In this document: one piece after another, positions 10,296 through 41,029 of the stretch
Position numbering within the stretch: position 1 is the stretch's first letter
Layout of the letters: each line of letters starts with the position of its first letter
NCBI GenBank assembly: GCA_002269645.1
Contig: NIVC01003586.1
Coordinates: 1-64,000, forward strand
DNA length: 64,000 nt
Origin: Macrostomum lignano
Lineage: Eukaryota
Direction of reading: 5' to 3'
Position numbers and translations under genes: made by a program
Notes under the pieces: model-generated
Databases searched by the model: none
Told to the model about the DNA's origin: nothing
What the model saw: only the letters and a program-made list of their open reading frames with translations

Positions 10296-11261
10296 TGTTG
10301 TATCCCCCTTCCTCGCTGGCACGGCCGGGTTGGGCGACGGGTAGCGGTGTCGGGGTTCGGGTACTGGACTGCCCAGGGCTTACGAGCTCGATCGGCGACC
10401 CCGAGGCGTACGGACACTTCGGGGGGAGGTCAAGGTTGAGAAGTCGAGAGAGAGGGGAGGGGCGGCTGTGGGCGGGCGGCCACTCGACAGCCTGGTGAGT
10501 CAAGGAAGAGAGAGAGGGCTGCGGGCGGTCGGCCACTCGACAGCCTGGTGAGTCAAGGAAAAGAGAGAGGGCTGTGGGCGGGCGGCCACTCGACAGCCTG
10601 GTGAGTCAAGGAAGAGAGAGAGGGCTGCGGGCGGTCGGCCACTCGACAGCCTGGTGAGTCAGACTGAGGAGAGAATGAGAGAGAGAGAGATCAGGAGAGC
10701 GACCCCGAGGAACACAGGCAATTGTCTCGACAGCTTACCGGGCCGGGTCGATTATAGCACTCATACACGGGAAGGCCGATCGATTGCAATAAATTGAGTC
10801 TTCGCAGTAAGAGACCGTCTCTACGGTTGATCGCTGGTCACGTTCGTTTATTTATCGCGGTGGGCGCAAATGGGCGCAGGCACGGTGAGAAAAGGGGCGG
10901 GGTCTGAGCGTCGCCTTAAATAACGAGTAAAAAGGGGCAGGGGCGCAAACAAGGGGGGGAGAAAGGGCTTAAACAATGGAGCTGATTGACAGCTGATTGG
11001 CTGCGGCGAGGGGAGGGTGGAAGCGCGCACGGCCAGGGAGAGGGAGAGAGAGCAGAGGCCCAGCCAATCAGCACGGCTAGCCAAAGGGCTAAACAGCCAA
11101 GGCGAGAGAGAGAGAGAAAGAGAGCAGAGGCTCAGCCAAAGGGCTCATAGCTCCAGACTGGCTTGAGCCGGGGGGGGGGGGGTAACAATAATCAACTACC
11201 AAAGTCAACAACTATCAAAGTGCACTTGCACCAGGGGAGCACTGTGACACAGGTCACAACA
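10296..11261 (-). repeat. 3' LTR (966 bp)
   Basis: Matches 18125-19088; the only difference seen by eye is poly-G length (13 vs 11). Confidence 0.97.
10785..10828 (-). other. Spliced-leader (SL) exon-like sequence in 3' LTR
   Basis: AACCGTAGAGACGGTCTCTTACTGCGAAGACTCAATTTATTGCA; matches the M. lignano SL as recalled (CCGTAAAGACGG..TTTATTGCATG) and the flatworm AACCGT..ACGG..TTGCATG pattern. Confidence 0.8.
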
Positions 11262-11272
11262 CCCTCCCCCCT
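11262..11272 (-). promoter_or_regulatory. Polypurine tract
   Basis: Minus strand AGGGGGGAGGG directly abuts the 3' LTR. Confidence 0.9.
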
Positions 11273-11389: not shown

Positions 11390-11770
11390 CCGAGGATGTC
11401 GGACAGGCCGAGAACACCGGGCACGGCCGAGAATGCCGGACTGTGGCCGAAAACGCCGGGCATGGCCGAGAATGCCGGACAGCGACCGAGAATGCCGGGC
11501 AGCGGCCGAGAACGCCTGGCATGGCCGAGAATGCCGGACAGCGGCCGAGAATGCCGGGCAGCGACCGAGAACGCCGGGCATGGCCGAGAACGCCGGGCAT
11601 GGCCGAGAGTGCCGGACAGCGGCCGAGAATGCCGGGCAGCGGCCGAGAATGCCGGGCAGCGACCGAGAACGCCGGGCATGGCCGAGAGTGCCGGACAGCG
11701 GCCGAGAATGCCGGGCAGCGGCCGAGAATGCCGGGCAACGACCGAGAGCGCCGGGCATGGCCGAGAGTGT
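11390..11770. repeat. GC-rich about 20-bp tandem array (ggccgagaatgccgggcagc variants) in the element 3' UTR
   Basis: Direct observation; source of several spurious ORFs. Confidence 0.9.
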
Positions 11771-11899
11771 TCCCCGCCCTTCCTTCGGGGCCGCTCCCAG
11801 TGCCAAACAGAGGGATCACAACGACGATCAGAGGAGAGATGGGATGAAATGAAGGAGTGAAGGTCTCTTGCCCGCCCTGGCATCCTGCCCCAGAACCCC

Positions 11900-12781
11900 C
11901 TAGACCGCCACCTCCGCCGCCCGGCGCAACAACCCCAACACGCGTCCTCCGTCGATTAGTTCAAACTGAGGGATCGCAACACTCATGACGAACCGAGTGC
12001 TTCGCTTGAAGGCAGGCCGCCGCCAGACACGCCGAGCATGACCCCGACACTTGGCGCTGATGTCACGGAGAATGAACTTGACAGTCTGAGCCAAAAGCTC
12101 GGCGATTTCGCGTCGATGATCCAGCCGCTCGCTGCCGCACAGTCCCACCATTTCAGTCAAAAGCCGGAACATCGCAGCTGGACTCCCCGACAACAAAGCG
12201 TGCCGAAGCTCCGACCGGATTCGAGCTCTTCGCTGCGTTGCCTCCCCGCTCCAGGTGTATTCCACCTCGGTACTCGGCTCGCTCCTCATCAGCCACGCTG
12301 GCGACTCCCGTTGGTCGATGACGAGCTCCGGTTCGTCTTCTGACATCGAAGTTTCGCCGTCGGATTCATTCAAGAGCTCTTCTTCCTCTGACTGCGTGAT
12401 TTCACAGCAGCTCTGAGCAGTCTCCTCGCCGCCGCAACCACCACGCTCGCTTCCTTCCGACTCCCTGTCCTCGTCTGACTCTTCTGTTTCGTCTTCAATC
12501 GTTACGACAAACTCCTCCGGGACGCACATCCCATCCGGCGGGACAAAATACCGGGCGCACTCGAGCGGGTTGCTAACGGCATCCTGCCCGAACCGGTCGT
12601 ACAGCGCTCGTCGAAACGGACACAGCAGGACCGCACTCGCATGCTGCAGCCTCTGGAAATTCTCCGTTCCACCGGGTCCACACTTGTCGGGGTGCCGTCG
12701 CAGGCTCTCACGGCGGTACGCACGTCGCAGCTCCTCCTCCGTCGCGAAGGGGCTGACACCAAACTCGGCGTAGAGGTCCAT
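11900..12781 (-). CDS. Retrotransposon ORF3: N-terminal DnaJ J-domain, acidic tract, unknown C-terminal domain (293 aa from the ATG)
   Basis: MDLYAEFGVSPFATEEELRRAYRRESLRRHPDKCGPGGTENFQRLQHASAVLLCPFRRALYDRFG has the J-domain helix pattern and HPD motif; same strand as pol, between integrase and PPT. Confidence 0.88.
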   Translation of the reverse strand: MDLYAEFGVSPFATEEELRRAYRRESLRRHPDKCGPGGTENFQRLQHASAVLLCPFRRALYDRFGQDAVSNPLECARYFVPPDGMCVPEEFVVTIEDETEESDEDRESEGSERGGCGGEETAQSCCEITQSEEEELLNESDGETSMSEDEPELVIDQRESPAWLMRSEPSTEVEYTWSGEATQRRARIRSELRHALLSGSPAAMFRLLTEMVGLCGSERLDHRREIAELLAQTVKFILRDISAKCRGHARRVWRRPAFKRSTRFVMSVAIPQFELIDGGRVLGLLRRAAEVAV

Positions 12782-12984
12782 GCCCGGAAAGCAGTGCCTG
12801 CAACAACCACGACTCACTTTTGAGAGCAGGGCAATGGTTCCTTCGAGCCTCTTTGGGGCGCCGATCCTTCATCCCTGATGGCAGGGTTGGGCAGGTGGGA
12901 CCTCCACTGACGGGCCTTAAGAGGGGAAATATATATTTTTGTTTGTGAAGCAGAGGCAATAACACGAGCCCAGTTTTCAATAAC

Positions 12985-13180
12985 GCGGGTGATGACGCAG
13001 ACGATGCTTCGAACCAAATGTTGATGACGCAGGTGATGACGCGGATGATGCTTCGAACCAAATGTTGATGACGCAGGTGATGACGCGGATGATGCTTCGA
13101 ACCAAATGTTGATGACGCAGGTGATGACGCGGATGATGCTTCGAACCAATTATTTATGACGCAGGAGATGACGCGACATT
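12985..13180. repeat. 44-bp tandem repeat (gatgacgcaggtgatgacgcggatgatgcttcgaaccaaatgtt), about 4 units, between pol and ORF3
   Basis: Direct observation. Confidence 0.9.
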
Positions 13181-13202
13181 GCGCACGCACTCACGTCCGC
13201 TC

Positions 13203-16200
13203 TTAATAATAAACGGGCGTTCCATAACGCTGCGGAACCCTTCGATCCCTCTGGGGTCGACCTTCGATGACTTCAACTGGCGCTTCCGGCTGCGGCTGCA
13301 CTCCTGGCTGCTGCACATCCATTGGTTCTCCCTCCTCTCGAACCCGCCCGGAATGTCGCCACCATCGCTCCTCATCCTCATCGTCCGATTCCGTCTCTTG
13401 AGCAGGACCTGGGTGGTACCTCCTTGGTGCAGGACGCCGAGGGCCACCGGTGCCGTCGACCGGGTACTTCCGGTACCGAGGCAGGAGGTTGTTAAAGTGC
13501 ACCACCTTGATCGGCTTCCGTCGACCTTCCTGTCGAATCCTATAGCGCGTCTCCGACAGCTTCTCGAGAACTACGGCAGGTCCGGTCCAGGGTGAGTGGA
13601 GCTTCGCTTTGGCACCGGCCTTCAACACGGGGTTGTAGACGAACACCTCGTCGCCAGCCACGAATTCTCGACCCTTCACCTTCCGGTCGTACCAGTCTTT
13701 CTGCACTCGTTGATATGACGTTATTCTCTCACGCACCACCCGATGGGCTTCCACGAGCGTCTCCCGCAGGTTCTGGACTTCCTCGCAGTACGGTTCGATG
13801 TCCAGTGGGCGCGCCACTCCCAAGTCAACTGGCAGAGACATCTCGCGACCATGCAGAAGGAAGAAGGGTGAGTAGCCGGTGCCGCGGTGCACACTGGAGC
13901 GATACGCCATGAGCGCCGGGGCAACGAATTCGTCCCACCGCCTCTGATCCGGCTCCTTCACCAGGTGCGCCCGGATCACTGCAGTCAGCGTCTTATTGAA
14001 GCTTTCCACTTGGCCGTTTCCAGAGGGGTGATAGGCGGTCGTACGCGTCTTTCGGATATTCAGACTTTCGCACAGCTGGCCGATCAATTGCGACTCGAAA
14101 TTGGCTCCCTGATCCGAGTGGATTGTCCCTGGGGCTCCGTAGTGACAGACCCACTCCTCGAGCATTGCCCTTGCACAGGTGCTGGCCGTCTGATCTGGCA
14201 CCGGTACTGCCACTGGCCACTTACTGAACGCGTCCTGCATCGTCAGTATGTATTTGTTGCCTCGGACGCTGGTTGGCAGTGGTCCAATCAAATCCACCAT
14301 CACTCTTTCAAACACATGGCTGCTGGGAATCGGCTCCAATGGGGCCTTCCGCCGCATCCCGGGCTTGCTCCGGTTACAGTCGTCACACCTTCGCACAAAC
14401 TCCTCGACCTCTCGCTTCAAGCCGGGTCTCCAGAATCGGTTCCTGACTTTCTCCAGAGTCTTTGCTACGCCGAAGTGTCCACCTCCTGGTCCAGAGTGCA
14501 GCGTCTGCAGAGCGTCGGGGATCAATTTCTTCGGGAGAACAGCCCGCGGTGGGTGACGTCCCAGATCCTTGATGACGAGGGTGTTGTCCACAATTTCCAG
14601 CCGAGGCTTTTGTGCCCAGATGGCTCGGGTCGTTGGTGACGCACCCCGAGGTGGCTCTTCGTTTGCTCGGCCGGCGTGCATCGACTGGTAAACTGGAGCG
14701 ATGTCGTTGTCCACAGCTTGTGCTGCTGCCAGCTCATCTCGGCTGAGCAACCCGAGCAGCGTCGTTACCCTGACCCCGGGGAGGTCATCAGTCCGGCACG
14801 ACGGGCAGTTATCCATTTCGGGATGTCGTCGCGGCGGCTTGCGTGACAGCGCGTCCGCATTCTGATGACGCGCCCCTGGCCGATGCTCCACTGCGAAGTC
14901 GAATGGCGCCAACCTCTCCATCCACCGAGCCAACTGGCCTTCCGGCTGCCTCATACTTCGGAGCCACTGCAGACTTGCGTGGTCGGTGCGCACCCGGAAC
15001 CTCCGGCCAAGTAGATAGTACCGGAACCTCTCTGCGAATGTCACCAGCGCCAGGAGCTCGATTCGTGTCGTGCAATAGTTGAATTCGGCCCCTTGCAGAC
15101 GCCGACTCCCGTACGCAATAACCCGCTCTGACCCGTCTTCTTGTACCTGCGACAAGACTGCTCCGAGACCCTGTCGGGTACTTCCATCGGTATCCAAGAT
15201 GAACTCACCAGCCGTGGGGTCGAAGTTCGGGTAGGCCATCACGCGGCAACCGGTCAATTCTTCTTTCAGCTTTTTGAAGGCCTCATCGTGTTCCTCTCTC
15301 CAACTGAACGGCTTGTCTTTCTTTGTCAGATCAAAAAGTGGTGCAGCGACTATCGAGAATTCTGGTATGAAGTTTCGGTAGTAACCAGCCAGACCCAGGA
15401 ACGACTGAAGGTCTTTTGCATTTCTTGGAATGCTCCAGTCACGGACTTCCTTGATCTTCTCCGGGTCGACATCGATTCCGTCCTTTGACACGACGTGGCC
15501 AAGGAATTTGACCTCATCGGCCAGGAATCTGCACTTAGATGGCTTTAGCCTCAAGTTGGCTGCGCGCAGGCGCTGGAATACCGCCTCGAGATTCGTTAGA
15601 TGCTCGCTGACAGTTCGGGACCAAATGATGATATCGTCGATGTAGACGAGCGCCATTTTCCACAGAAGGTCGTGTAGTACCATATTCATCAACCTTGTGA
15701 ATGTCGCCGGCGCATTGGTCAATCCGAAGGGCAGCACCTTGAACGCGAATTGCCCCCGATGCGGAATGACAAAAGCAGTCTTTTCTTGATCCTCCCTTTT
15801 GACCTTAACTTGCCAATAGCCGGAGCAAAGGTCGAGCGTCGAAAATACAGCCGCACCTCCGAGCGCTTCAAGTGCGTCATCGACACGCGGGATTGCTATG
15901 GCGTCCTTGACAGTTCGTTGATTCAACTCTCTGTAGTCGACACACAGTCGCAGTTCCCCATTCTTTTACGGACACAGACCACTGGCGAACTCCACGGCGA
16001 TTGGGTCGGTTCAATCATCTTCGTTGCCAAAAGCTCGTCGATTTGTCGGTCGACTTCGCCGCGCCAATGTGGCGGTAGCCGTCGCGGAGGCTGTTTTACG
16101 GCTGTTCCGGTGGTCTCAATTTCATGCTGCACGATGTCCGTCGTCCCGAGGCGCGCTGTACTCTCTGCGAAAACATCTGCGTATCGATTCACCAATCTTA

Positions 16201-17155
16201 GGAAACTCGCTTTGTCTGCCCCCGTGAGCTGCTTGGAGCCGTGCTGGTTCAGTGCCGCCTCTGGGTCCCATGGATCGCAGCTGGGTCGTAAAACCGACGC
16301 TTGCTCTTCGATGCTGGCTACCAGAACCTCTTGAGCCGGATCTGATGGTCGAAACCAGCCGATGACAGCTCCCTTCCGCAGCCGCAGCTCGGAGTCCGTG
16401 ACATTCGCGAAGTGAACTGGTAGGGTGTTGCCCTGCTGGATGAGGCAGACGCTCCTGGCTAGCATTGGTCTCTCATCGCTCTTCAGTTTTTCGTCTGGTT
16501 CGGCGACGCCGAGCACTCCGGAATTCTGTGTCGCTGTTCTCCGAATCCTGGCTGAGACGGTCCGTTCGTGATTGGCCGGAATGATCAAGTTTTCGTTCAG
16601 GTACAACCGGCAGACGACTGGTTTGTGCTTGGTCTCTCGGATTGGCACACGTGAACCGTTCACGCGGAAAACTCCTCCGGCGAAATCGATTTGGCACCGG
16701 TGGCGGCGTAAGAAGTCGGTGCCTAGCAACAGTTCGTAGCCGACCCCTTGGACCACCGCAATTGGCGTCTGTAAAGTTTCTGATCCGAACTGTAGGGGAA
16801 GCGACGCGCATCCTAACACATTCATGGGAGTTCCGTTCGCTGAGATCAGGTGGGTTTCCGAAGGGCTGAGTTCAACTCGAACCGACTTGCTCAACTGCCG
16901 CCAGGTCCTCTCGTTCACCAGCGACATGACCGAGCCCGAATCCAACAGACACGGCAACTCAATCTCGCCAATTTTTACCGACACGTAGATTGACACGGGA
17001 TTAAAAGCTGTTGCAGGTTGATCTCTATCTCTTGAGCAGTCCGCCGGACATCCTGCTGCACGTCGCTCCGGGGCTGCATCTTCGTCTCGGGTTGGGGCCT
17101 CTACTGTCTCGGCGGAACTCCCTCGCCCCTGCGGAAGTTCCCCTTGCCGTTTCCC
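13203..17155 (-). CDS. pol: protease, dUTPase-like spacer, RT, RNase H, integrase (GPY/F); one 1-bp frameshift at about 15965
   Basis: LLDSGS (PR), YIDD (RT), TDGS..YGSRRL (RH), H-H-C-C then D..D..E (IN), SPWTGP. ORFs 15923-16996 and 13203-15926 join if one A is added to the A4 run. Confidence 0.95.
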
Positions 17156-18081
17156 TGTTGCTGACGGGTTGGGCAGTTAGTCGCGATGTGCCCTGGCTTG
17201 TTGCAGAAGAAGCAGCGAATTCCTCCCGTTCGTCGAGGCTTCTGATGGTCGCCTTCGTCGGAGTCGGTCGGTCGAGCTGCGGCGCTGCTATGCGGTTCCG
17301 CTCTCAGCGACTCGAGCTGAACCACTTTGCCTTGAAGCTGCCTCACCAGTTTCTTCAACTCCTCGAGCTCTTTGTCCTTTTCTTGGGAGTAGGCTCCATC
17401 CTCCCGAGGCACAGATTCCGCCGCGCCGCTCACCACGAAGACTCCTCGGTGGCCGCTGCCAGTTGCTCCAGCCGATCTCGGTCCCTTCGCCGCCTTGGAC
17501 GCCGCCTCGAGCTGCCTCACCGCGCGTTGTGCTGCCACCAGACCTTCGGGCTGCTGCAGGTAGAGCTTCTCTCGCTGGAGGTCGGAGAGTCTCACCCCTT
17601 GCATGAAGCGATCCTTTGCGAGGTCGTCCTGCAGCTCGGCAGTTGCCGCCGGGTAGGCACAGCGCACCAGTTCAAGGAGAGCATCTGCGTAGGCCTCCAA
17701 CGACTCGCCATCCTTCTGATCTCGGGTTTTTAGCTCGACCTTGCTGTCCTGCTCTGTCCGGTACCGGGAGAAGCGAGCCTCCAACCGGGCGGTGAATCCC
17801 TCGTAGTCCAGCGGATCCACAGGATCGTCGGGTCCCGGCAGGTTCAGATTATCGACCGCAGCGTACGCCGTAGCGAGATCCAGCATGCTCATCAAGTGCT
17901 CGCGGCGATGCTCCTCGTCAATCTCGGCGGAGTCGCAATAAGCGTTGAAAGAGCGCAGCCAGAGTCGAAAATTCATGCTTGACGTGTACTTCACGGGCTT
18001 CGGGAGTCTCGGTGGCTGGGCTGGTCCATCCGCTCGCAGACGCTCGGCTAGCAGCCGAATCAGTTCGTCCACATTCGCCAT
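17101..18081 (-). CDS. gag with CCHC zinc knuckle (326 aa)
   Basis: CFFCNKPGHIATNC; typical gypsy capsid region; ATG 25 nt after the PBS. Confidence 0.95.
   Translation of the reverse strand: MANVDELIRLLAERLRADGPAQPPRLPKPVKYTSSMNFRLWLRSFNAYCDSAEIDEEHRREHLMSMLDLATAYAAVDNLNLPGPDDPVDPLDYEGFTARLEARFSRYRTEQDSKVELKTRDQKDGESLEAYADALLELVRCAYPAATAELQDDLAKDRFMQGVRLSDLQREKLYLQQPEGLVAAQRAVRQLEAASKAAKGPRSAGATGSGHRGVFVVSGAAESVPREDGAYSQEKDKELEELKKLVRQLQGKVVQLESLRAEPHSSAAARPTDSDEGDHQKPRRTGGIRCFFCNKPGHIATNCPTRQQQGNGKGNFRRGEGVPPRQ
17114..17155 (-). promoter_or_regulatory. Candidate -1 ribosomal frameshift signal (gag-pol)
   Basis: G GGA AAC slippery heptamer (17149-17155), 7-nt spacer, 9-bp stem with 10-nt loop; -1 frame is open into protease. 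Confidence 0.75.
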
Positions 18082-18105
18082 GACAGCTCACAAGCAAACT
18101 GAGCA

Positions 18106-18123
18106 GTCCCTGTTCGGGCGCCA
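18106..18123 (-). promoter_or_regulatory. Primer binding site, tRNA-Lys
   Basis: TGGCGCCCGAACAGGGAC, 1 nt inside the 5' LTR; this is the known tRNA-Lys(UUU) PBS sequence. Confidence 0.92.
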
Positions 18124-18124
18124 A

Positions 18125-19088
18125 TGTTGTATCCCCCTTCCTCGCTGGCACGGCCGGGTTGGGCGACGGGTAGCGGTGTCGGGGTTCGGGTACTGGACTG
18201 CCCAGGGCTTACGAGCTCGATCGGCGACCCCGAGGCGTACGGACACTTCGGGGGGAGGTCAAGGTTGAGAAGTCGAGAGAGAGGGGAGGGGCGGCTGTGG
18301 GCGGGCGGCCACTCGACAGCCTGGTGAGTCAAGGAAGAGAGAGAGGGCTGCGGGCGGTCGGCCACTCGACAGCCTGGTGAGTCAAGGAAAAGAGAGAGGG
18401 CTGTGGGCGGGCGGCCACTCGACAGCCTGGTGAGTCAAGGAAGAGAGAGAGGGCTGCGGGCGGTCGGCCACTCGACAGCCTGGTGAGTCAGACTGAGGAG
18501 AGAATGAGAGAGAGAGAGATCAGGAGAGCGACCCCGAGGAACACAGGCAATTGTCTCGACAGCTTACCGGGCCGGGTCGATTATAGCACTCATACACGGG
18601 AAGGCCGATCGATTGCAATAAATTGAGTCTTCGCAGTAAGAGACCGTCTCTACGGTTGATCGCTGGTCACGTTCGTTTATTTATCGCGGTGGGCGCAAAT
18701 GGGCGCAGGCACGGTGAGAAAAGGGGCGGGGTCTGAGCGTCGCCTTAAATAACGAGTAAAAAGGGGCAGGGGCGCAAACAAGGGGGGGAGAAAGGGCTTA
18801 AACAATGGAGCTGATTGACAGCTGATTGGCTGCGGCGAGGGGAGGGTGGAAGCGCGCACGGCCAGGGAGAGGGAGAGAGAGCAGAGGCCCAGCCAATCAG
18901 CACGGCTAGCCAAAGGGCTAAACAGCCAAGGCGAGAGAGAGAGAGAAAGAGAGCAGAGGCTCAGCCAAAGGGCTCATAGCTCCAGACTGGCTTGAGCCGG
19001 GGGGGGGGGTAACAATAATCAACTACCAAAGTCAACAACTATCAAAGTGCACTTGCACCAGGGGAGCACTGTGACACAGGTCACAACA
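18125..19088 (-). repeat. 5' LTR (964 bp) with CCAAT, GC boxes, TATTTAAG, AATAAA, SL-like exon, splice donor and 4x about 50-bp repeats
   Basis: Direct repeat of 10296-11261. Confidence 0.97.
18614..18657 (-). other. Spliced-leader (SL) exon-like sequence in 5' LTR
   Basis: Identical to 10785-10828. Confidence 0.8.
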
Positions 19089-21559
19089 ATAAAACTTGGC
19101 TCACGACTCCGGTAGGTCTTCAAAGTGACGCTGCTCACGTCTGATTTCTTCAGATTAGTCCCGTTTGATGTGGCGGAATCCGCTGCAGGCCGAATGACAT
19201 CCAGCATCCGTTCTTGACTGCCGAATTGATGGCGCCTGCTTGCATGAGCTTTCTGCGGCGACCCACGCACCGGCGGCATCGATGACTGCAGCAGCGAGTC
19301 GTTGCTTCGTCGATGAGGTGCGGCGGACGTCGGCAGAGGACGCGACTCCAGCTCGCAGAGCAGGCAGTCTTTATAGAGCGCCGACTTAAGAAAACGAGCA
19401 TAGCTGTCCATGCGCATCAGGTTGAAGATCTGGCTCTGCGCTGCGTTGAACATGCCGACATCGAGCTGGCCGCTGCTCAGGCGACGCTGCACCTCGCGCT
19501 CGGTGGCGCCGTCCAGATTGATACTCGCTGGAGCCTCGCAGCCAATGTGGAGTCGCTCGATACGATGGGCCGCGGCGAGAATCTGCTGAGAGAGGGTGCA
19601 GACGTTATTGACTTTACTAGATAAATGAGCTCCCAGGTGGGAAAATTGATGAAAAAATTGTGGTGACCATTCGGAAAAGCTGCGTCATTGCATAACGCGA
19701 GTCTGGGGAAGGATATCCTCTTGTACTCAGACAGTCAAGCAGCGATCCTCGCCCTTGAGCGCACCACCACCACCGACTACATCGGGTAGCTTAACTGCAT
19801 GCTTAGGTGCCTTCAACAAGGTGTCTCTAATATGGATTTCCGCGGGCACTCGGGCCATCCCAGCACCCCAGCTGCTGCCCAATCACAGCAGGGTGAGCTG
19901 GAGTGCAGAGCTGCTGCCCAATCACAGCAGGGTGAGCTGGAGCTCAAGAGCTGCTGCCCAATCACAGCAGAGTGAGCTAGAGCCCAGAGCTGCTGGCCAA
20001 TCACAGCAGGGTTAGCTGGAGCCCAGAGCTGCTGCCCAATCACAGCAGGGTGAGATGGAGCCCAGAGCTGCTGCCCAATCACAGCAGGGTGAGCTGGAGC
20101 TCCGAGCTCAAACGTGCCACTGGCTCACAGTTGGCTGGCTTGGGAGATGACGCTCATACAGCCTACTCAGCTGAGCACTAACTGCGATCAACTCTGCTTA
20201 ACCGCGAAAGCTTCAAAGTAACAAGCTCTCAGCTGAGCTGCCAGCCTCACCTCGCCAGGTTCATCCGTCGGCAGTTGCTTGAACTCTTCGACAGCCAGCC
20301 AGAACTGGATGTTCTCTTCGCTGAATTCGGTTCGGAGAAAGTCGGCGAACACCCAGACACCGTCGGTGTCAGCCAGCAGGTGGTCCAGCCCGGTGGCCCA
20401 CTTGGCTACCCGATTCGCTCCGCGTCGCAGCTCCTCCAAGCCTGCAATGAATAATTGTGATGGAACTATACTGGCACTCCTGACACTATGCTGGCACTCC
20501 TGACACTATGCTGGCACTCCTGACACTATGCTGGCACTCCTGACACTATGCTGGCACTCCTGACACTATGCTGGCACTCCTGACACTATGCTGGCACTCC
20601 TGACACTATGCTGGCACTCCTGACACTATGCTGGCACTCCTGACACTATGCTGGCACTCCTGACACTATACTGGCACTCCTGACACTATGCTGGCACTCC
20701 TGACACTATGCTGGCACTCCTGACACTATGCTGGCACTCCTGACACTATGCTGGCACTCCTGACACTATGCTGGCACTCCTGACACTATGCTGGCACTCC
20801 TGACACTATGCTGGCACTCCTGACACTATACTGGCACTCTTGACACTATGCTGACACTCTTGACACTATGCTGACACTCTTGACACTATACTGTCTGGCA
20901 CTCCTGACACTATACTGGCACTCCTGACACTATACTCACGCTCCTGAATCTATACTCTCCTTTCTCTTCAAACAGACTGCATGAAACGCACATGTAATAG
21001 CTCATACATTTGTTTCATAACATTCCGGAAGAAAAATCTGACATCCCAGTCAGACTTTGGAGGTAGAGTGCATATAATTGCGCCCATCTGTTCATAGGGA
21101 TCTAGGGACAATGGTACGCAAGCAGAGCTACCATATTTTCGTACCCGCTGCTGCAGCGGCGCAGTCCCGGCTCAGCTGGCCGCCGACCATCCAGTCGTCG
21201 TCGAAGTCAAGCGTCTCCTTCATCTGGGCCAGATTCTGACAGCTGACAGCCAGTTTGGAACGGCCCTGACTGCCGTGCTGGTGCAGCTGATGTTGCGGGA
21301 ATCTGCAAGGTGGCGCGAACTCATCGATGTCGGGCTTGACTTGCTCGCCACCGGAACTGGTGCTAGCGAGGCTGTGCTGGGATCCGAAGAAGCTCAGGTG
21401 GCCGATGTTGCTCAGGAGGTGACTCAGCCTGTGCCAGCGGTGCTGATGTTAGTGCTGCGTTGATTGCTGCTTCTGCGACTGCTGCTGGGCGTTGGCAAAT
21501 TTCTGCTTCCCAGCGCCAGTCTGCTTTGCCGACTTTCCCTTGCCAGGCTTGTAGAGCAT
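19019..21559 (-). CDS. Regulator of G-protein signalling (RGS12/14/loco-like RGS box), disrupted by the LTR element
   Basis: Exons 21145-21559 (in-frame TAA at 21449-21451), 20251-20441 (W..GLDHLLAD..F.DFLRTEFSEENIQFWLAVEEFK), 19089-19582 (INLD..MFNAAQSQIFNLMRMDSYARFLKSALYKDCLLCELESRPLP); reads into the LTR to a stop at 19019. Confidence 0.88.
19700..19862 (+). pseudogene. Degenerate RNase H fragment of a non-LTR retrotransposon in RGS intron
   Basis: GKDILLYSDSQAAILAL..NKVSLIWISAG resembles [18 protein letters not shown] of the LINE at 36150-39968. Confidence 0.65.
19858..20100. repeat. About 40-bp minisatellite (agagctgctgcccaatcacagcagggtgagctggagccc), 6 units
   Basis: Direct observation. 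Confidence 0.9.
20462..20945. repeat. 20-bp minisatellite (ctggcactcctgacactatg), about 23 units
   Basis: Direct observation; starts about 20 nt from the RGS exon 2 acceptor. Confidence 0.95.
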
Positions 21560-22903: not shown

Positions 22904-24416
22904 CAGTAGGAATACCAAGCCATTTTTCCGCCCGTCGAACTACCAAGAGGGGGGGAAAAATTTCCCCCCTCCTGACAATTTTTTTTGCTGCGCCGGAACG
23001 GAGCAACGCAGGCACACGAAATTCAAGAACACCGGCAAACTTTTTGTTGCACACCTTCTCAAACAAGAATCAAGTCGCCAGCCCTCCGGACCGTCGAGAT
23101 ATTCGACGATTCTGCCAGAAGGTCGGATTTTTCCCATAAGCGCTAGTGTATTCAGTACACCCCTGTGCGCCAAATAGCACTGCGCCTCAGTGCAGCCTTG
23201 CCAAGTCTCCAAATTTCATCAGCACGTCGACCAAATGTGTCTGCATCAGCTCTGACTTCGTTGGTTACTGGCCTTCACCGAGACGGAGCTTCTAGACCTT
23301 CAACAGGTGGCACCAGGTGACTATGAACACCTTGATGCGAATTTCTCGAGTTTCACCGATCGAGCCTCGACAGTAGGCAAGCCTCAACTGCCGAACACCC
23401 TCAGCTAGTCTCCTGAGCATTCCGTCATCATCCCAACACCGTCGGCACCTTCAACAGGTGGCATCAGGTGACTATGGACGTCCTTTTGCAACTATGTCAG
23501 GTCTTTCTTATCAAGCTTTAATAATGGGCAAACCTCAACCGACGGACATTGTCAGCTAGTCTCTCAAGCATTCCGTCATCATCCCGACGCCGTCGGCTCC
23601 TTCAACAGATGACACCAAGTGACTATGGACACCCTGATGCGAATTTCTCTAGTTTCGCCGATCAAGCCTCGACAGTAGACAAGCCTCAACTGCTGGACAC
23701 CTTCAGCTAGTCTCCTAAGCATTCCGTCATCATCCCGACACCGTCGGCACCTTCAACAGGTGGCATCAGGTGACTATGGACGTCCTTTTGCAACTATGTC
23801 AGGTCTTTATTATCAAGCTAGAGAAATTAGAGAAACTAGAAACTAGAAACTAGAGAAATTCGCATCAGGGTGTCCATAGTCACTTGGTGTCATCTGTTGA
23901 AGGAGCCGACGGCGTCGGGATGATGACGGAATGCTCAGGAGACTAGCTGAGGGTGTCCGGCAGTTGAGGCTTGCCTACTGTCGAGGCTCGATCGGTGAAA
24001 CTCGAGAAATTCGCATCAAGGTGTTCATAGTCACCTGGTGCCACCTGTTGAAGGTCTAGAAGCTCCGTCTCGGTGAAGGCCAGTAACCAACGAAGTCAGA
24101 GCTGATGCAGACACATTTGGTCGACGTGCTGATGAAATTTGGAGACTTGGCAAGGCTGCACTGAGGCGCAGTGCTATTTGGCGCACAGGGGTGTACTGAA
24201 TACACTAGCGCTTATGGGAAAAATCCGACCTTCTGGCAGAATCGTCGAATATCTCGACGGTCCGGAGGGCTGGCGACTTGATTCTTGTTTGAGAAGGTGT
24301 GCAACAAAAAGTTAGCCGGTGTTCTTGAATTTCTTGTGCCTGCGTTGCTCCATTCCGGCGCAGCAAAAAAAATTGTCAGGGGGGGGGATTTCCCCCCCCC
24401 CTTGGTAGTTCTACTG
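22904..24416. mobile_element. Foldback-type element with about 500-bp inverted arms and internal 151-bp repeats
   Basis: 22937-23430 is the reverse complement of 23930-24410; ends ttaa|cagtag..ctactg|ttaa; units start at 23297, 23448, 23599, 23750. Confidence 0.85.
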
Positions 24417-28134: not shown

Positions 28135-28729
28135 GTATTGCTTTTGACGCTCTAACATTCTGACACTCTGACATTCAAAATAAGACTGCATAGGATCGCA
28201 AGCAAGGCCAGGCTAGCCACGGCCAGAGCAAGCCCAGTCTTGGCTGCAGGGATGGCTTGGCCATAGACTAAAAAATGGAATATCAAAATGAGAATAAGAC
28301 GCTCAATATGAGACCGGGAGTGAACGTAATTTATTTGCTTTTTGGCAGTCACCATACAAACAGCTAAGGAGAAATTAGGCAATAAACAAGAAGCAGAATA
28401 GCATATCGAAATGTTTAGTCCATCACTGAAGTCAGCCTGGCGGACTGCGTTAGAAGGCCATTCGATTTAAGGACATGCCAAAGTGCCTCTGACAGTGGAG
28501 TCCCAACTGAGGGTCAGAGGGTTAGAGCGATGTCTGAAGGCTTTCACACTCAGTTTCGTATTGAGCGTCTTATTCTCATTTTGATATTCCATTTTTTAGT
28601 CTATGGCCAAGCCATCCCTGCAGCCAAGACTGGGCATGCTCTGGCCGTGGCTAGCCTGGCCTTGCTTGCGATCCTATGCAGTCTTATTTTGAATGTCTAA
28701 AGTCTTATCTAGAGCGTCAAAAGCGATAC
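28135..28729. mobile_element. MITE-like element with about 175-bp TIRs, 205 bp upstream of the IYD start
   Basis: 28135-28311 is a near-perfect reverse complement of 28556-28729; no TSD identified. Confidence 0.8.

Positions 28730-36149: not shown

Positions 36150-41029
<4,880 letters not shown>

Follow-up and report, generated by a model that had tools for sequence, protein, structure and literature searches.

How does a retrotransposon express a gene that lies downstream of pol? This question is raised by a long terminal repeat (LTR) retrotransposon of Macrostomum lignano found in contig NIVC01003586.1 (assembly GCA_002269645.1), of which positions 1 to 64,000, 64,000 nucleotides (nt) in all, form the window analysed here. 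Coordinates are window positions, and the element and its third open reading frame (ORF3), which codes for a J-domain protein, are read on the minus strand. The first-pass annotation had proposed env-like expression of ORF3 from a subgenomic messenger RNA (mRNA) in which an LTR leader exon ending at 18568 is spliced in frame to an exon starting at 12797. ORF3 presumably requires some subgenomic route. On the basis of sequence signals, the most likely route to an mRNA of its own, favoured here tentatively, is an internal promoter combined with trans-splicing of the host spliced leader (SL) at the same acceptor, 12797.

The ORF3 product matches the Pfam DnaJ family (PF00226; E 1.2e-12, 48 bits against a cut-off of 27.8) and contains the HPD motif of J-domain (Hsp40-type) proteins. 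It matches no Env family, and has a J-domain and a helical domain instead of an envelope glycoprotein. A search of 1.84 billion representatives identified a specific ORF3 family, consisting of P0003, P0005, P0007 and P0058 together with the M. lignano gene models P0004 and P0006. Full-length relatives are 33–35% identical to ORF3, and in P0004 and P0006 the ORF3-like part follows the integrase ends of other elements; a UniRef model from M. lignano is 95% identical to ORF3 across 276 residues. Word-index searches returned generic DnaJ proteins and the family members P0007 and P0058; exact look-ups of ORF3, gag and upstream-extended ORF3 gave no match. Metagenome and viral scans with the family alignment A1 yielded no locus, and none of 18 pol-related loci had an ORF3 relative or an LTR match. 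A structure model of P0007 (predicted local distance difference test score, pLDDT, 77) matches J-domains with a best Z of 12.1 and a root-mean-square deviation of 1.1 over 69 residues. Its C-terminal part matches generic helical bundles alone (Z up to about 8); for this domain the structure atlas gave no match and the viral library returned J-domain matches only. The single-sequence fold of ORF3 itself is poor (pLDDT 49). Together, the sequence matches and the model of its relative suggest that ORF3 has a J-domain Hsp70 co-chaperone fold joined to a helical domain. ORF3 is intact with its HPD motif and has a GC content at third codon positions (GC3) of 0.69, like gag (0.70) and pol (0.65). Its full-length relatives at the above identity suggest that it has been kept by selection.

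The start of ORF3 is conserved as well. Its own ATG lies in a strong context (−3 G, +4 G), and a Met is present at the J-domain start in all five relatives that cover this position (P0003–P0007). In three of the five this Met is internal to the predicted protein, which argues that its conservation is no artefact of start calling. As this ATG is strong and conserved in the family and the ATG of the LTR leader is weak, ORF3 would be self-starting and an in-frame leader extension dispensable. Two relatives show other arrangements before this Met: P0003 has a 14-residue extension ending in Leu-Leu-Gln right before it, possibly an acceptor-like sequence read in frame, and in P0006 the pol end is joined almost directly to it.

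Upstream of ORF3, the pol–ORF3 spacer has the appearance of a promoter. Its 44-nt tandem repeats carry five TGCGTCA sites (13163, 13119, 13075, 13031 and 12999), and a TATA-like TATATAT at 12935 and an initiator-like TCAGT at 12910 lie 27 nt apart. In 5000 spacer shuffles such a pair turns up at a rate of 0.06% under strict and 0.4% under loose matching, for motifs picked post hoc. An out-of-frame ATG is located at 12872. The spacer has three YAG sites, of which that at 12797 alone takes the form YTNCAG; it conforms to [T/C]TNCAG, the top trans-splice acceptor motif of the host (PMC8629364). An acceptor near a 5' end without an upstream donor suffices for trans-splicing (PMC8629364). ORF3 mRNA would thus start at the internal promoter formed by the 44-nt repeats and the TATA-like and initiator-like motifs, and the acceptor at 12797 would take the host SL in trans because, under this rule, it would be an unpaired acceptor near a 5' end. 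Trans-splicing would remove a 111-nt outron holding the out-of-frame ATG, and translation would begin at ORF3's own ATG. The leader ATG would then open a short upstream ORF (uORF), and the LTR donor at 18568 would be unused or minor.

RNA evidence was sought in 4 of 24 listed sequencing runs, as Logan contigs, on 11830–20440. No run in that listing was recorded as RNA; X3, X11 and X5, from three studies, were taken as such only because an intron of the host RGS gene (19582–20251) is spliced in them (3/3); it is unspliced in the DNA-like run X15 (0/1). Logan contigs result from Minia3 graph simplification after removal of singleton k-mers (10.1101/2024.07.30.605881), and they lose rare variants. 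Joints with 28-nt sides were detectable in the RGS control, and reported joints had sides of 20–30 nt; the control intron has no competing unspliced form and gives no gauge of sensitivity to a minor isoform. Of 749 contig pieces 32 were listed, and of 125 loose ends 24; among these, coverage of the donor at 18568 is not visible. The RNA contig sets cover gag, pol, the spacer and ORF3. Coverage of the element exceeds the level of DNA carry-over implied by a host intronic repeat by roughly 130-fold in X3, 34-fold in X11 and 3.8-fold in X5; by this rough measure, DNA carry-over is unlikely as its source in X3 and X11, and possible in X5. The acceptor at 12797 is crossed unspliced and without differences by one contig in each RNA run (11830–13032 in X3 and X5, 11877–13032 in X11). 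SL joints at 12482, 13314 and 16708 (sides 20–22 nt) were rejected as chance matches of other SL-bearing mRNAs. A further one at 11971 was also rejected as a chance match, as no AG precedes the site and an element contig crosses it unbroken.

Several points weigh against this combination of an internal promoter and SL trans-splicing. The consensus sequences used for TATA and initiator are those of other animals and may not be those of this host. The terminal ATG of the SL would be out of frame at 12797, opening a 30-codon frame that overlaps the ORF3 start. A donor-like GTGAGT lies 20 nt upstream of the acceptor (12798–12817), the GT...AG interval being too short for an ordinary intron. No SL joined to 12797 is listed in the three RNA contig sets; SL depth in the RNA runs is 50,000–80,000, and contigs may miss an SL join beside so deep an SL. 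The ratios of ORF3 to gag–pol contig depth are 1.22, 0.81 and 0.97 in the RNA runs and 0.93 in the DNA-like run, a rough and poor measure. Because ORF3 depth is not above gag–pol depth, no abundant subgenomic ORF3 RNA of any kind is indicated. Finally, this route leaves the donor-side phase match of the leader, described next, as a coincidence.

The cis-splicing originally proposed comes second, as a possible but doubtful route. An RNA started in the LTR would be spliced from 18568 to 12797, as is env in ZAM/Beagle-type elements, giving an mRNA with an SL copy at its start and the leader ATG in frame; leaky scanning to the ORF3 ATG would produce nearly the same protein. The signals described by the first-pass annotation were all recovered on the minus strand. 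The leader ATG at 18593 sits 20 nt past the SL-like segment (end 18614); the exon ends at 18568 and is followed by GTAAGC; the acceptor TTGTTGCAG ends at 12798, so that the exon starting at 12797 begins 16 nt upstream of the ORF3 ATG (12781); the phases match, with 26 + 16 = 42 nt making 14 stop-free codons; and unspliced RNA has a 9-codon uORF with its stop inside the donor. This ATG is the only one from the SL-like start to gag (3.2 expected, P = 0.11), and the donor is the first donor-like site in the leader. Of the 12 GT[AG]AG sites upstream of ORF3, that at 18567 alone combines an open frame with a phase compatible with 12797.

Shuffle tests, all of them on splice signals chosen post hoc, qualify the significance of this match. 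An ATG whose frame stays open into a phase-2 G^GT[AG]AG donor (the caret marks the exon end), anywhere in the leader, occurs in 2.6% of 3000 shuffles, and G^GT[AG]AG within the first 100 nt of the leader in 2.8% of 2000. On the acceptor side, an in-phase open YAG at most 100 nt from the ORF3 ATG occurs in 39% of 2000 spacer shuffles, and the stricter in-phase YTNCAG in 4% of 2000. The signals do somewhat better than the chance of 1 in 3 that the first-pass annotation gave for a phase match, without being compelling. Both sites fit the published motifs of the host, where donors follow GT[G/A]AG and acceptors follow CAG or [T/C]TNCAG (PMC8629364). In P0186, a gene model in the public record for a nearly identical copy, ORF3 is reached through the same acceptor from a donor in the spacer; the model is a chimeric prediction with a donor other than 18568, and shows only that the acceptor scores well.

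Other data argue against this splice. The 18568–12797 joint was found in 0/3 RNA contig sets, which can lose rare forms, while the RGS intron is spliced in 3/3; the acceptor is bridged unspliced in each RNA run; and ORF3 shows no excess of depth. ORF3 has no need of the leader ATG, which is weak. Elsewhere in the element, the sense strand shows no depletion of donors (13 observed against 14.3 expected), and the pyrimidine tract of the 12797 acceptor is middling, 33 of 172 YAG sites being equal or better. The ORF3 ATG, strong and conserved, and the promoter-like spacer likewise weaken the leader-ATG route without refuting it. As contigs cannot prove absence, env-like expression by cis-splicing is thus weakened, not refuted: its signals, their fit to host motifs and the acceptor choice of P0186 stand, whereas the pairing of the two sites is absent from the RNA contig sets. 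The splice would need to be minor, or confined to unsampled tissues or conditions, and in such a minor or restricted form it is possible. It may also coexist with the internal promoter. Fusions of Gag or Pol to the J-domain via strong gag or pol donors are ruled out, being out of phase.

An operon-like route, in which the full-length LTR transcript is SL trans-spliced at 12797 without an internal promoter, or ORF3 is translated at low level from unspliced RNA, is unlikely. Operons of the host are resolved by SL trans-splicing, whose motif the acceptor fits (PMC8629364), and spacer RNA is seen only unspliced and at even depth; however, cis donors are present upstream and should favour cis-splicing, the SL join at 12797 is missing from those listed, and the promoter-like spacer is left unexplained. 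Least probable of all is that the family has no working ORF3 expression route left or uses another junction, with the 18568/12797 phase match arising by chance, since, although the three RNA contig sets contain no subgenomic form of any kind and the 39% of shuffles makes an acceptor-side match easy, ORF3 is intact with HPD, shares the GC3 of gag and pol, and has full-length relatives, including two that are joined to the end of pol in gene models from other elements.

The LTR itself carries a copy of the SL. Positions 18646–18614 match the published 35-nt SL of M. lignano over its first 33 nt (PMC8629364), without its terminal ATG, and host SL contigs stack on 18614–18649 in the RNA runs. The SL is conserved throughout Macrostomum (PMC10468722). 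The copy suggests that RNA of this element lineage was trans-spliced in the past. Partial SL sequences are present in other flatworm LTR and long interspersed nuclear element (LINE) retrotransposons, for which trans-spliced retrotransposon RNA has been suggested as the source (PMC12582326); unlike those fragments, the copy here is almost complete and is fixed in the two LTRs of a young family. A further reading, rather unlikely, is SL mimicry: an LTR exon with the captured SL copy would be cis-spliced to give an mRNA resembling an SL trans-spliced message of the host, which would code for a lineage-wide retrotransposon J-domain co-chaperone that recruits host Hsp70 to element replication, for example to Gag particle assembly or uncoating.

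Other features of the LTR and of its SL copy are as follows. In the DNA-like run X15, the SL-like segment attracts many contigs with unrelated sequence on both sides, and its bin depth reaches 900, where single-copy sequence has about 8, which indicates that SL-like sequence occurs in many genomic contexts. SL RNA genes are defined by a donor directly after the SL and then an Sm site, in about 109 nt (PMC8629364). A working SL RNA gene in the LTR is ruled out, as the donor lies 46 nt from the SL copy and no U-run (Sm site) follows within 168 nt; Rfam gave no match in 18100–19100. Two LTR layouts can be drawn. In one, a TATA-like sequence at 18684 is about 28 nt upstream of the SL copy and RNA would begin with the SL mimic; in the other, TATTTAA at 18751 is combined with the sole AATAAA at 18681 and the SL copy comes right after the poly(A) site. 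In the RNA contigs, U3 sequence runs on into the SL copy as far as about 18621. Four 53-nt repeats (18290–18500, and 10460–10670 in the other LTR) lie downstream of the putative start, each with a perfect AP-1-type TGACTCA, GC boxes and, on the opposite strand, a donor-like CTG^GTGAGT. A canonical heat-shock element is absent from the LTR (0 matches to the two patterns of PMC12801592), and the element falls outside the heat-shock-element LTR families of M. lignano. Neither its SL-like motif nor its primer-binding-site motif is present in the available supplements of PMC12801592.

Both candidate routes have counterparts. In Drosophila errantiviruses belonging to the ZAM and Beagle subclades, env is spliced from a short peptide exon upstream of gag (PMC12992720), and the splice proposed for ORF3 would work alike: a donor after a short upstream exon and an in-phase acceptor before ORF3 are present here, the arrangement of env in ZAM/Beagle and in Tor3a. 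The locus differs from ZAM/Beagle in that it carries a J-domain protein instead of Env-F, that ORF3 starts with a conserved ATG of its own and that the donor is inside the LTR; the junction appears in 0/3 RNA contig sets. In the Ty3/gypsy-type Tor elements of Oikopleura, both routes are documented, Tor3a env being spliced from the LTR while Tor3b/4b env has an internal promoter (PMC4402516). For Tor4b the start is within the post-pol spacer, as is proposed here; the Tor cargo is Env, whereas ORF3 codes for a J-domain protein and its start is deduced from sequence motifs. The available text of PMC4402516 makes no mention of trans-splicing of Tor RNAs. Accessory ORFs of the Drosophila MDG1 group are expressed without splicing (PMC11952523).

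Non-envelope cargo is also known. LTR retrotransposons of bdelloid rotifers carry non-env ORF3s, namely a GDSL esterase and a DEDDy exonuclease (PMC5408684), and Cer1 of C. elegans carries CERV, a novel non-envelope ORF that is spliced and shares exons with gag (PMC10309623). Like ORF3, these are captured or novel non-envelope ORFs in the env position and form a separate expression unit. In the texts available, no J-domain protein is among them (the word "DnaJ" is absent from that of PMC5408684), and unlike CERV with its shared gag exons, ORF3 is out of phase with all four gag donors. The main text of a survey of M. lignano LTR elements (PMC12801592), as far as available, leaves DnaJ, ORF3 and splicing unmentioned, and the available part of a metazoan env survey (PMC13524379) mentions neither DnaJ nor Macrostomum. 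No earlier report of a J-domain ORF3 in retrotransposons was found by titles and abstracts, a search with subscription papers mostly outside its scope.

The element is a young Ty3/gypsy LTR retrotransposon of Macrostomum (Table 1). Its two LTRs differ solely by a 2-nt gap, a 4-bp target-site duplication (TTAT) flanks it, and it has a primer-binding site, which we take to be of the tRNA-Lys type, and a polypurine tract. gag is followed by pol with protease (PR), reverse transcriptase (RT), RNase H (RH) and integrase (IN) in that order of Pfam matches, the protease match scoring under the curated cut-off. gag and pol overlap at a GGGAAAC slippery heptamer (17155). In the window copy, pol is interrupted by a frameshift near 15965; contigs of 3/4 runs differ from the window by an indel there, so that only this copy may have the break, or it may stem from an error in the assembly. 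In all four runs a 24-nt in-frame insertion relative to the window is present near the pol end (13386), and P0186 carries matching residues, which points to a private deletion in the window copy. About 5 element copies are present per single-copy depth in the DNA-like run, by a rough estimate. The 3' untranslated region between ORF3 and the polypurine tract contains about 400 nt of 19/20-nt tandem repeats (11400–11800). LTR-element clades surveyed in M. lignano are Mag, CsRN1, Gmr1/Osvaldo and Mdg3 (PMC12801592).

Table 1. Features of the retrotransposon in window coordinates (carets mark exon boundaries).
Feature	Position	Strand	Remarks
5' LTR, 964 nt	18125..19088	minus	TGTTGT...ACAACA ends
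SL-like segment inside LTR	18614..18655	minus	compared with the SL printed in PMC8629364
Leader ATG and 9-codon uORF ending in donor	18564..18593	minus	weak context, −3 T, +4 A
Candidate donor G^GTAAGC, exon end 18568	18562..18568	minus	copy also in 3' LTR
Primer-binding site	18106..18123	minus	
gag, 326 aa	17101..18081	minus	CCHC knuckle
pol (PR-RT-RH-IN)	13203..17160	minus	5' boundary approximate
pol–ORF3 spacer, 421 nt	12782..13202	minus	putative internal promoter and outron
Candidate acceptor TTGCAG^G, exon start 12797	12797..12803	minus	fits host cis- and SL trans-acceptor motifs
ORF3, 293 aa	11900..12781	minus	J-domain with HPD, acidic linker, conserved C-terminal helical domain
Polypurine tract	11262..11272	minus	
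3' LTR, 966 nt	10296..11261	minus	

Within a gene coding for an RGS-domain protein (Pfam RGS), the element sits in sense orientation some 15 codons upstream of the stop (insertion at 19089/10295); exon 19582–19089 of this gene resumes below 10296. The empty site is expressed in X5 (loose end 19084), and contigs of X3 and X11 also depart at 19084, so the insertion is polymorphic or limited to one homeolog. Elsewhere in the window, 36150–40891 (minus strand) holds an apparently intact non-LTR retrotransposon with ORF1 of 307 aa and ORF2 of 1272 aa (from translation); its ORF2 has endonuclease-, RT- and RNase H-like parts, and the ORF1 stop overlaps the ORF2 start. Inverted repeats within 22950–24401 and 28170–28697, with arms of 576 nt at 93% and 155 nt at 96%, are possibly of fold-back type or like miniature inverted-repeat transposable elements.

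Overall, the class of mechanism is ordinary whichever expression route holds, as it is textbook knowledge that Ty3/gypsy elements express a third ORF through splicing or an internal promoter. The apparent novelty lies in the J-domain cargo. ORF3 represents a conserved family of J-domain proteins that is linked to pol in several elements of Macrostomum, and it is the combination of this cargo with an SL copy in the LTR that makes the locus worth 5'-end mapping. The host uses SL trans-splicing and is ready for transgenic work, and the 5' end of ORF3 mRNA would reveal whether a retrotransposon exploits or mimics SL trans-splicing for an accessory gene. If the mimicry reading is true, SL mimicry would serve the expression of an accessory gene that recruits chaperones.

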